Made by a program: the position numbers and the translations under genes
From: a virus
DNA length: 64,000 bases
IMG/VR virus record: IMGVR_UViG_3300031949_000014
Strand: one strand, 5' to 3'
The notes under the pieces: generated by a model
What the model was told of the DNA's origin: nothing
Databases searched by the model: none
Seen by the model: only the letters and a program-made list of their open reading frames with translations
In this document: in pieces, positions 1-4,784 of the stretch
How positions within the stretch are numbered: position 1 is the first letter of the stretch
Layout of the letters: every line of letters begins with the position of its first letter

Positions 1-2
1 TG

Positions 3-422
3 TCTGCGCTCAAGCGCAAAAACGGTAAGTTGATGCCTGTTGATGTGGTGAAGCGCGCTCGTTCAAAGGCGAGCGCGCTTCACCGTCACTTCGTTTGGGA
101 CGACACCAAAGCCGCGCATGAACACCGACTGTGGCAAGCACGGGAGTTGATCGTGACCGTGCAAGTCGTGTTCGAAGGGACAGAAGGGCGTGAGGTGCAA
201 AAGTACGTGTCTCTAGCACCAGACCGTCAGAAAGGAGGAGGTTACCGCGAATTGAGCGCTGTGCTCACGAGCGCGAAGCTGCGCGCGGAGTTGTTGCAGA
301 CGGCATTCCGCGAGATGGCGTATTTCCGCGCGAAGTACAAATTCTTGCGCGAGCTGGCAGAAGTCTTCGACGCGATGCTCAGGGTAGAGCAGAAGCTCTC
401 GCGCAAGCGCAAAGCAGCTTGA
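3..422 (+). CDS. Conserved phage hypothetical protein, 5'-truncated by the window edge; directly precedes the pentamer array
   Basis: Frame is open from position 3 (SALKRKNGKLMPVDVVKRARSKASALHRHFVWDDTKAAHEHRLWQARELIV). Matches the phage family pattern NGxLxPxxVVxxARxxxSxLHxxFxWDDxxAAxxxRLxQARxLI. Confidence 0.8.
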   Translation, partial: SALKRKNGKLMPVDVVKRARSKASALHRHFVWDDTKAAHEHRLWQARELIVTVQVVFEGTEGREVQKYVSLAPDRQKGGGYRELSAVLTSAKLRAELLQTAFREMAYFRAKYKFLRELAEVFDAMLRVEQKLSRKRKAA

Positions 423-430
423 GGTTTTTA

Positions 431-882
431 GGCACGGCAGCGCAAGGTTTGGCTGGGCGCGACATGGTGTGGCAGGTGTGGCATGACAAGATGAGGCATG
501 GTTCGGCACGGCAGGCTCGGTTCGGTGGGCTAGGCCTGGCATGGGTAGGCACGGCAGGTGTGGTGTGGCAGGGCGTGGTACGGGTTGGTGCGGTTTGGTC
601 CGGCGGGCGCGGCAAGGCATGGTGTGGCACGGTACGGTTGGCGCGGCAGGTTTGGCCCGACGCGGTTTGTAAAGGCAGGGCGCGGTAAGGCACGGCTCGG
701 TGCGGCAGGCTGGGTTAGGCGAGGCACGGTTAGGTGCGGTTTGGTTAGGTATGGCGCGGCAGGTTCGGCGGGGCGCGGCCAGTCATGGTTTGGTAAGGCG
801 TGGCGCGGCAGGCGTGGCGCGGCAGGCGCGGCAGGCGAGGCAAGGCCGGGTATGGTCAGGCGCGGAATGGCGAGGCCGGCAA
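431..882 (+). repeat. Degenerate GGY-NN pentamer array, segmented by GGCA tetramers; candidate guide-type ncRNA (VIPR-like)
   Basis: Manual parse: 80 pentamers (70 begin GGC/GGT) plus 13 tetramers (9 GGCA) = 452 nt. Variable NN positions, no credible ORF. Confidence 0.95.
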
Positions 883-890
883 AGGGTGTG

Positions 891-923
891 GCACCGAGCC
901 CAACATCGGTGCGTTTCTTTCTT
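891..923 (+). terminator. Rho-independent terminator closing the array
   Basis: Stem GCACCGA (891-897)/TCGGTGC (906-912), 8-nt loop, then GTTTCTTTCTT. Confidence 0.8.
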
Positions 924-964
924 GCGCAAGTGAATAGTCCCTGCTACCTCCCGGTCTACCCCTC

Positions 965-3055
965 GTGCCCGCGCCCGCTGCCGCTGTTGAGACCCGCGAA
1001 GCTGTCCTGAAGAGGATCAAATGGGAGCGCCCCGGCAACGCGTGGAAGCTCCTGCAGATGACCAATGGCCAGACCTGGAAGGGCGCCGTCGGTGACGTCC
1101 TGCCGGGTGCATTCTTGAAGGCCGAGGGCGTCGAGGTCACGGACAACTTCGGCCTCGCGTTCGAGGTCAAGACGCTCCTCAGCTCGGTCTTGAAGGGCGC
1201 CGCCGGCGTCGAGGCCTGGATGACGTACCGCATGCCAGAGATCGGCGCTGTTCGTGCCCGCGCCCTGGTCGAGCGTTTCGGCGAGGACCTCGGGGCCACC
1301 ATCTTGAACACGCCTGCGGCGTTGGCGACCGTGCCAGGCATCACGATGGAGCGCGCGACCGCCATCCAGACGGCCTACCTCGGCTACCAGGATGAGCTCG
1401 CTTGGGTGCCGAAGCTCGTCAACAACGGCCTGCAGATGGCCCACGCCCTTGCCACTTTCAAGGCCCACGGCGTCGGCCTCGAGCAGGTCTTGGACACGGA
1501 CCCGTACGTGTTGGTGGACGTCGAGGGGCTCAGTTTCGAGGTCGTGGACGCCCTGGCGCGCCGTCTGGGCATGTCCGAGAAGGACCCCCGCCGCATGCGC
1601 GCCTGGGTGCGCAACATGCTCGAAGAGGACCTCGACGAAGGCCACTGCAACCGGCCGCTGGTCGAGGTCATCGTCGCCATCGCTAAGTGGGGTTTCCCCG
1701 CCCGCGAGGTCATCGACTTGCTGAAGCCCTCGAAGCACCTCTGGATCGAGGAGAAGACCATCTCTCTCGCGCGCATCGCCTACGCCGAGCGCCGGGTCGC
1801 CGCGGGGGTCCGAGGGCTGGTTGAGCAGGGACAGCGCGAGCTGGGCGAGGTCGAGTTGCCCGAGAGCCTCGACGCGTCGCAGAAGGCCGCCGCGCTCGCT
1901 CTCCTGGTCGAGCCCATCGTCGTCATGACCGGCGGGCCGGGCGTGGGCAAGACGCATACGCTCAAGAGCGCCCTGGACGTCATCGAATCCCGCGGCGAGC
2001 GCCCGGTCCTCGCGGCGTTCACCGGCAAGGCCGCCAAGCGCATGTCGGAGGTCACGGGGCGCCCGGCGAGCACGATTCACAAGCTCATCGGTTGGACGCC
2101 GACGGGTTGGAAGTGCGGTCCGGGCGAGCCTATTGCTGCGGACGTCATCGTCATCGACGAGGCCTCGATGGTCGACGTCGAACTCGCCGCGGCGCTCCTC
2201 GACGCCATCGGCGAGGGCACCAGGCTCATTTTGGTGGGCGACGTCGACCAAATACCTCCCGTTGGTCCGGGGCAGCCCTTGGTCGACATCATTCGTTCTG
2301 CGAAGGTTCCGGTGCATACGCTCACGAAGACGCACCGACAGTCGGCGAAAAGTTGGGTCATCGACAACGCTCGACGCATCATCAACGGGGAGGTGCCGAA
2401 CCTCGAGAGCGACGGCAGCTTCGATTTCATGGCGTGCACGGATTCGGACATGATTGTGGCTGTCGTCGTCGCGATGCAGAAGAAGTTCCCGAACGTGCAG
2501 GTCTTGACGCCGGAGCACAAGAAGGGCGCCGGCACCGTTCGCCTAAACAACGAGATTCAGGCTGCCGTCAACCCGCGCTCGAAAGAACAGTGGGCCTCGT
2601 TCATCGAGTCCAACGGCTGCAGGATTTTCGCCGGCGACCGCGTCATCTACACCAGGAACCAGCTCGGCTTGGTCAACGGCGACCTCGGTCTCGTCGAGGA
2701 CGTCGAAGTCATCGGCAACAGGAAGGTCGTCACCGTCCGCTTTGTTGGCGTCGAGAATCCAGATCCTGAGAGCATCGACGGCCTCTTCAAGCTGCAGGAC
2801 GGCAACGTGCGGCCGCTGCAGCTCGCGTACGCGCTGACCGTGCACAAGTTCCAGGGGTCGGAGCACCCCGAGGTCGTGGTCGTCGCCGACGAGGCCCACT
2901 GGAGCTTCCGCCGGCAGCTTCTCTACACCGCGGTCACGCGCACGTCCGACAAGCTCGGCATCGTCGGCTCGCGCGAGGCCGTTGCGCGCGCGGTTGCGAA
3001 GCCCAGGGACACGAATCGCAGGACGAGGTTGGTGGAGAGGATTGGTGGAGCGTGA
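965..3055 (+). CDS. recD2: RecD2-like SF1B helicase
   Basis: HhH (TVPGITMERATAI), Walker A GGPGVGKT, Walker B VIDEASM, LVGDVDQIPPVG, LTKTHRQ, AYALTVHKFQGSE, LLYTAVTR. Confidence 0.93.
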   Translation: MPAPAAAVETREAVLKRIKWERPGNAWKLLQMTNGQTWKGAVGDVLPGAFLKAEGVEVTDNFGLAFEVKTLLSSVLKGAAGVEAWMTYRMPEIGAVRARALVERFGEDLGATILNTPAALATVPGITMERATAIQTAYLGYQDELAWVPKLVNNGLQMAHALATFKAHGVGLEQVLDTDPYVLVDVEGLSFEVVDALARRLGMSEKDPRRMRAWVRNMLEEDLDEGHCNRPLVEVIVAIAKWGFPAREVIDLLKPSKHLWIEEKTISLARIAYAERRVAAGVRGLVEQGQRELGEVELPESLDASQKAAALALLVEPIVVMTGGPGVGKTHTLKSALDVIESRGERPVLAAFTGKAAKRMSEVTGRPASTIHKLIGWTPTGWKCGPGEPIAADVIVIDEASMVDVELAAALLDAIGEGTRLILVGDVDQIPPVGPGQPLVDIIRSAKVPVHTLTKTHRQSAKSWVIDNARRIINGEVPNLESDGSFDFMACTDSDMIVAVVVAMQKKFPNVQVLTPEHKKGAGTVRLNNEIQAAVNPRSKEQWASFIESNGCRIFAGDRVIYTRNQLGLVNGDLGLVEDVEVIGNRKVVTVRFVGVENPDPESIDGLFKLQDGNVRPLQLAYALTVHKFQGSEHPEVVVVADEAHWSFRRQLLYTAVTRTSDKLGIVGSREAVARAVAKPRDTNRRTRLVERIGGA

Positions 3056-4291: not shown

Positions 4292-4509
4292 CGCAGTCCG
4301 ACTACTACCACGAGAAGTACGACATCTCTCTCGATACGTGGCTCGCAGATCGTCGCGAAGGCCTATCGTCTTTCGCTGCGTGGTGGGAAAAGCAAAACGC
4401 GATTGATCCAACGCGCTTTCCGCTGAAGATGTTGGCGGGCGACTGGGACGAGCAGATAGAACTTTGGGGAAGCGCGGCGGTTGCTCCTGCCAAGGCTGAA
4501 GGGCGATGA
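4288..4509 (+). CDS. Hypothetical protein
   Basis: ATGA overlap with the previous gene. Confidence 0.6.
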   Translation: MTQSDYYHEKYDISLDTWLADRREGLSSFAAWWEKQNAIDPTRFPLKMLAGDWDEQIELWGSAAVAPAKAEGR

Positions 4510-4784
4510 AGTCTCCTTTGAGAACTCTGAGGCTGCTCTCTTCCCTCTTCTTGCAGGACGCACCGCCGACATACGACCGCACGGGCTACGACATCGGCCG
4601 CCGCGTGCGTTGGCTCGACAGAGAGGGGAAGACGATGCGCGGCGTAGTTTACGGGACTGACAAGCTGACGATGCCGGCGTCGGAATTCGGGGAGGAGCAG
4701 AGCATGATCTGCCTCTTGATCCGAGATGACGAGGGTCGCGAGTGGAGTGTTGGACCCGGTGTCGAACTCCAGGACGACGAATGA
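4506..4784 (+). CDS. Hypothetical protein, SH3-like beta barrel
   Basis: ATGA overlap; IGRRVRW...RGVVYG...WSVGPG. Confidence 0.6.
   Translation: MKSPLRTLRLLSSLFLQDAPPTYDRTGYDIGRRVRWLDREGKTMRGVVYGTDKLTMPASEFGEEQSMICLLIRDDEGREWSVGPGVELQDDE

Follow-up and report, generated by a model that had tools for sequence, protein, structure and literature searches.

A truncated viral gene that abuts a GGYNN array as a probable accessory gene of an RNA-guided phage silencing locus

At the left edge of a 64,000-nucleotide stretch of viral DNA (IMG/VR record IMGVR_UViG_3300031949_000014, hereafter called the window), an open reading frame runs almost directly into a long array of GGYNN pentamers, which raises the question of what kind of gene accompanies such an array and what its product might do there. 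The frame (3-422, + strand) is open at its 5' end, continues past the left edge and contains 139 codons followed by a TGA stop at 420-422. Comparison with a full-length relative of 151 aa and 95% identity (P0001) reveals that only 11 N-terminal residues are missing, and in a PHROG search the phrog_15946 profile covers positions 20-140 of 151 (E 1e-19). Stop codon and first regular pentamer are separated by 8 nt (423-430, +) that contain neither a promoter-like site nor a credible terminator, and the array starts 0-30 nt past the stop codon in relatives too. One hairpin only is predicted at the junction (404-421, with a T5 run behind it); it is not accepted as a terminator, since it folds no better than shuffled sequences (z +0.37; 124/200 shuffles fold as well) and shows no conservation in relatives. 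Three points of an earlier sequence-only reading, namely the truncation at the left edge, the 8-nt distance between the gene and the first GGYNN unit at 431 and the lack of an intervening terminator, hold true, and it is plausible that the gene and the array share a transcript.

Repeats of this type occur in VIPR, a CRISPR-like system of RNA-guided silencing in phages that was first described in 2026. Its parts are the protein Vipr, vrRNAs made up of GGY/NN repeats and vap genes for accessory proteins (10.64898/2026.04.26.720920). The same paper distinguishes seven VIPR types and names vap1-6, and the accessory proteins of types II, VI and VII are predicted DNA binders (10.64898/2026.04.26.720920). 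Structures of Vipr are available as well (10.64898/2026.04.26.720927). In the Escherichia phage SUSP1, deletion of vap1 results in a 10^4 plating loss on satellite lysogens, the same phenotype as deletion of vipr (10.64898/2026.10.15.759431). According to the published work, Vipr-vrRNA complexes assemble and silence without Vap1, and Vap1 enhances protection and is needed in natural infection.

The vrRNA array of the window, which is of the staggered type, extends over ~460 nt (431..891, +) on the same strand as the gene. Between 431 and about 891, GG dinucleotides follow each other at 5-nt, sometimes 4-nt, steps, a pattern that is confined to the + strand and makes up ~90 GGYNN units. GCAGG marks are found at 472, 511, 554, 568, 646, 675, 705, 759, 808, 822 and 831, with partly regular spacing. 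A blastn search with the window showed that the array resembles DNA of Mycobacterium and Gordonia phages that also encode a phrog_15946 gene, and Rfam returned no match in window 1-1200. A hairpin with a T-rich tail at the end of the array (891..922, +; -13.1 kcal/mol, z -1.6) probably terminates the transcript of the locus, to judge from its predicted folding. The Vipr partner described below and the VIPR papers speak against reading the array as a G-quadruplex tract, an R-loop origin or an RNA bound by a TRAP-like protein. Two open reading frames called across the array (419-688 and 558-1010) are probably spurious. The next gene 3' of the array (965-3055, +) encodes a RecD2-like SF1 helicase with AAA_30, HHH_RecD2 and UvrD_C_2 domains (phrog_4412). 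It was considered as a second accessory gene and rejected: a homolog lies within 3 kb of vap in none of 83 related loci (0/83), so the helicase is regarded as a mere neighbour outside the VIPR locus.

The sequence-only reading had proposed that the gene belongs to a widespread uncharacterised phage family that often lies next to GGY repeats. Both parts are borne out. Homologs were detected by tblastn on a phage collection in Mycobacterium phages (Cheoctovirus, e.g. Quico gp58), Gordonia phages (UmaThurman gp41) and the cyanophage Cy-LDV1, and the family is present in more than 200 IMG/VR contigs; the protein matches no entry of Pfam, NCBIfam or PADLOC. For the survey of gene neighbourhoods, 80 IMG/VR loci were retrieved with the family alignment, and 83 loci in total were scanned for arrays, an array being called where 60 nt contained 9 or more in-phase GG out of 12. 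A same-strand array with GG at period 5 is situated within 1 kb of the homolog in 75/83 loci, and the rest of the flanks is almost free of arrays. This is a clear enrichment, and the link between phrog_15946 and GGY repeats is far above chance.

Eight loci have no canonical array, and three of these contain period-5 arrays with another fixed triplet, each placed between a Vipr-family gene and the phrog_15946 vap gene: GTT/NN in L010 (5751-5930), GAC/NN in L014 (3823-3920) and CGC/NN in L023 (4020-4118). These arrays are built from blocks of ~10 units split by a 4-nt unit containing CAG. Weaker GG/GT tracts were seen in L034, L037 and L041. Variants of the GAC/NN type have been described among VIPRs with non-canonical repeats (10.64898/2026.10.21.760802) and also occur among the phrog_15946 relatives. 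In the arrays of 66 non-redundant loci, the spacing of GCAGG peaks sharply at 44, 49, 54 and 59 nt, that is 5n+4, which points to guides of 8-11 pentamers with a one-base overlap and a conserved CAG-type boundary. The arrays beside phrog_15946 genes are continuous and carry no obvious tails, which is the staggered tail-less architecture of published VIPRs that likewise combine a Vipr-family RAMP, one small accessory gene and guides overlapping by one base (10.64898/2026.04.26.720920, fig. S18).

A second gene recurs at these loci. After masking of open reading frames over arrays, clustering of the neighbouring frames uncovered a ~220-aa gene adjacent to the homolog in 79/83 viral loci, on the same strand and nearly always upstream, at a median of 757 nt. 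The profile of this partner (A2) matches PDB entry 36pp, the "SUSP1 Vipr protein", with E 2.6e-10 over profile positions 24-198 and chain positions 4-181, the G-loop included, and one PHROG family, phrog_4652, is common to a member of the partner family and SUSP1 Vipr. By this sequence comparison the partner is the RAMP effector (Vipr) of VIPR systems. An independent scan of cellular genome assemblies detected the Vipr-family gene beside the homolog in 10/11 loci (E 1e-94 to 1e-20), which come from six or more phyla (the 11 loci comprise Planctomycetota, Bacteroidota, Alpha- and Gammaproteobacteria, Clostridia and Acidobacteriota). Among the 66 non-redundant loci, the most frequent layouts are vipr-array-vap (21), vipr-vap-array (21) and array-vipr-vap-array (7), and the stop codon of vipr overlaps the start of vap in 24/59 loci. 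The pairwise distances of Vipr and Vap proteins are correlated (r 0.72), and 0/999 Mantel permutations reached a value as high. Linkage of the phrog_15946 gene to vipr and period-5 arrays is obligate, and the gene is inherited together with them as their partner in an operon.

The Vipr profile A2 finds no match anywhere in the 64-kb window. Since the window falls into the vipr-vap-array class, this places the expected vipr gene just left of the window. The sequence-only reading had put an effector gene there; a RAMP gene next to the homolog in 79/83 viral and 10/11 assembly loci supports this position, and for the genome at hand the vipr gene just beyond the left edge is expected by synteny with relatives. 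It is possible that this genome instead carries a solo vap-array remnant. Taken as a whole, the evidence makes it very probable that the frame at 3-422 is the vap member of a VIPR locus with the order vipr-vap-array, in which vipr is expected immediately left of the window. The same evidence largely sustains the earlier proposal that the protein is a partner of the guide system, now in the form of an obligate linkage to vipr and arrays. The word "subunit" used at that time is better replaced by the safer "accessory factor", because published Vipr-vrRNA complexes form and silence without Vap1.

Two named phages illustrate the arrangement. In UmaThurman, the order is Vipr-family gp39, array and vap homolog gp41. 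The annotated gp40 (L002:3638-3961; NC_031249.1 33362-33685), a "hypothetical protein", coincides with the GGYNN array at L002 3615-3945 and is probably a spurious call over a vrRNA array. In cyanophage Cy-LDV1 (BK059895.1), the vap homolog g33 has an array on either side (L003:3675-3861 and 4477-4628), and the Vipr-family gene g34 lies upstream. The Cy-LDV1 locus is bordered by the cI/cro region on one side and by the excisionase, bet and exo genes on the other, and a position in the early lytic region was observed in Quico and UmaThurman as well.

The protein family is defined by the signature LH..F.WDD.KAA...RL.QAR.LI (alignment A3; codons at 78..152, +), which spans a long loop and helix 3, the putative recognition helix. 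The motif around WDD had been recognised from the sequence alone and proves genuine, with W43, A48 and R53 invariant in an alignment of 47 sequences. From this alignment, AlphaFold2 produced a model of high confidence (pLDDT 93.2, pTM 0.81). The model begins with helices 5-18 and 23-30 and continues with a conserved 18-residue loop (residues 31-48) carrying LH..F.WDD.KAA and a helix (49-63) carrying RL.QAR.LI. A small beta unit follows, which ends in the GGGYR strand 92-94 (the GGGYR codons, on the last strand of the wing, are at 234..248, +), and two long antiparallel helices, 102-122 and 127-150, form the C-terminus. Structure prediction thus assigns the protein to a fold class with an N-terminal winged-helix-like domain and a C-terminal helical hairpin, and the latter probably mediates dimerisation, if the model is taken as a guide. 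The conserved residues of the modelled domain are on helix 3, the loop that precedes it and the GYR wing strand.

The closest fold matches are regulators of the ArsR, MarR and PadR families. However, ArsR/SmtB, MarR, PadR and Zalpha proteins have a short turn before the recognition helix where the phrog_15946 protein has its 18-residue conserved loop, and it also differs from them by an extra wing insert and shares no significant sequence similarity with them. As far as conservation suggests, the phrog_15946 proteins are not operator-specific regulators. At the WDD and LH positions, D is in places replaced by N and H by Y; this speaks against a catalytic site, and on these sequence grounds the protein is argued to be non-enzymatic. 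A sequence search of the PDB gave nothing significant, the best match being an ssDNA-binding protein (E 0.016, C-terminal helix). The ESM Atlas contributed unnamed viral clusters only, and fused forms of 301 aa or more were not found, which is weak evidence.

Comparison with the only characterised accessory protein, SUSP1 Vap1 (P0008; phrog_5926, 146 aa, type II VIPR; KT454805.2 28031-28471), reveals a likeness of architecture. In SUSP1, vipr (195 aa) is followed by vap1 (146 aa) and both genes lie between arrays. Like vap1, the phrog_15946 gene directly follows vipr and lies beside or between same-strand pentamer arrays, and the products are of similar size (146 vs 151 aa). Vap1 has 232 relatives in a representative library, and its model reaches pLDDT 96.4. 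Both models have the element order helix, short strand, helix, long loop, long helix, beta-hairpin and C-terminal helical hairpin. Both have a G-x-GYR in the beta-hairpin, at an equivalent place, and neither contains a recognisable enzyme motif. The signatures, in contrast, are distinct (YGD..H and RGxGYRIxxPxEQ in Vap1; LH..F.WDD.KAA...RL.QAR.LI in phrog_15946), and the SUSP1-type arrays that go with Vap1 are pseudoknot-tailed, whereas phrog_15946 arrays are staggered and tail-less. Alignment of A3 by hhalign to a Vap1 profile of 60 sequences gave a probability of 1.9% (E 0.025), hmmsearch in both directions with --max detected nothing significant (best E 0.14 in a set of 152), and the Foldseek BFVD lists for the two models do not overlap; in all, five tests for a link to Vap1 yielded no significant result. 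The phrog_15946 gene is a vap gene by locus definition and Vap1-like in architecture, and is not filed in the Vap1 family (phrog_5926).

What the product might do is open to several readings. The array probably forms the 3' portion of an early transcript that also includes vap. The phrog_15946 protein would act as a non-enzymatic, nucleic-acid-binding cofactor at the target DNA or the R-loop, where it would strengthen or prolong silencing by the Vipr-vrRNA filament and would not read the constant guide bases. By analogy with published VIPR systems, such a cofactor role is a serious possibility, though one that falls short of being probable. It is favoured because Vipr-vrRNA assembles and silences without Vap1, while Vap1 enhances protection and natural infection requires it. 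As to mechanism, the analogy with Vap1, whose own mode of action is unpublished, counts for little. Independence from the constant bases follows from the variant arrays, since one family that serves four fixed triplets probably does not use its invariant polar residues to read them. The idea that these residues read universal GGY bases was accordingly rejected, given that the family also accompanies GTT, GAC and CGC arrays.

Instead of acting at the target, the protein could serve the maturation or loading of vrRNAs. It would recognise the boundary marks of staggered tail-less arrays (a 4-nt unit ending in CAG, as in GGCA|GG) and would help to set the limits of guides of 8-11 pentamers, to protect such guides or to start the assembly of Vipr on them. 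This is conceivable but unlikely. In its favour are the continuous, tail-less nature of phrog_15946 arrays with GCAGG at 44, 49, 54 or 59 nt (5n+4), the persistence of the CAG separator in GTT, GAC and CGC arrays, the array abutting the gene and the pairing of pseudoknot-tailed SUSP1-type arrays with a different Vap family. That contrast of Vap family and array type, however, is based on one other family; moreover, the invariant residues are not nuclease-like, the published Vipr-vrRNA complex forms without Vap1 and the modelled fold looks DNA-binding. The protein might also be an ordinary winged-helix regulator that binds a phage operator, represses or activates the VIPR operon or adjacent early genes and has no role in targeting. 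The ArsR, MarR and PadR fold matches speak for this, as does the position of the locus in Quico, UmaThurman and Cy-LDV1, where it lies in the early region next to cro, excise and recombination genes. Yet the residues that putatively read DNA hardly vary among phages of many phyla, unlike those of operator-specific regulators, start/stop overlap and co-divergence couple the gene strictly to vipr, and the SUSP1 vap1 deletion has the phenotype of a vipr deletion (10.64898/2026.10.15.759431), all of which renders a mere regulator improbable.

Least credible of all is that ORF 3-422 is the RAMP effector itself or an unrelated phage gene that hitch-hikes beside the array. In its favour is that the frame is the sole conserved gene that touches the array within the window. 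The Vipr profile, however, matches nothing in the window, the model lacks an RRM or ferredoxin-like core, and a separate Vipr-family gene is present in 79/83 relatives. A hitch-hiker is difficult to reconcile with a pairing that is seen again and again, in 83 viral loci and 11 from cellular assemblies, amid very different neighbours, while the RecD2-like helicase is never nearby elsewhere. Returning to the accessory role, it is tentatively proposed that phrog_15946 forms an accessory lineage apart from Vap1, convergent or beyond detectable homology, which is specific to tail-less staggered arrays. It would serve Viprs with at least four fixed triplets (GGY, GTT, GAC, CGC) and hence act without regard to the constant bases of the guide, its site being the target R-loop or the conserved CAG-type guide boundaries; as a whole, this more specific proposal is doubtful. 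If action at the CAG-type boundaries were true, phrog_15946 would be the missing factor that measures or delimits guides in arrays without tails or ribozymes.

VIPR and vap genes have already been published. The present analysis assigns phrog_15946 to VIPR on the strength of synteny that is quantified, reports a negative test of homology to Vap1 and shows that the family accompanies non-GGY arrays as well. A widespread unannotated phage family is thereby tied to VIPR and supplied with a confident model and a set of conserved residues. The association of one accessory family with different constant triplets narrows the range of possible functions of a protein class that, in the case of Vap1, is required in natural infection. 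For genome annotation, open reading frames called across such arrays are flagged as probably spurious.

A minor observation concerns the end of the protein. Window positions 405-419 encode the C-terminus ...RKRKAA, and 18/66 family members end in Ala-Ala, often behind a basic stretch. These ends resemble ssrA-like and MuA-like C-terminal recognition signals for ClpX. Their occurrence is uncorrelated with a downstream array (10/31 loci with an array, 8/35 without), and by analogy to such signals the phrog_15946 protein may be kept short-lived.
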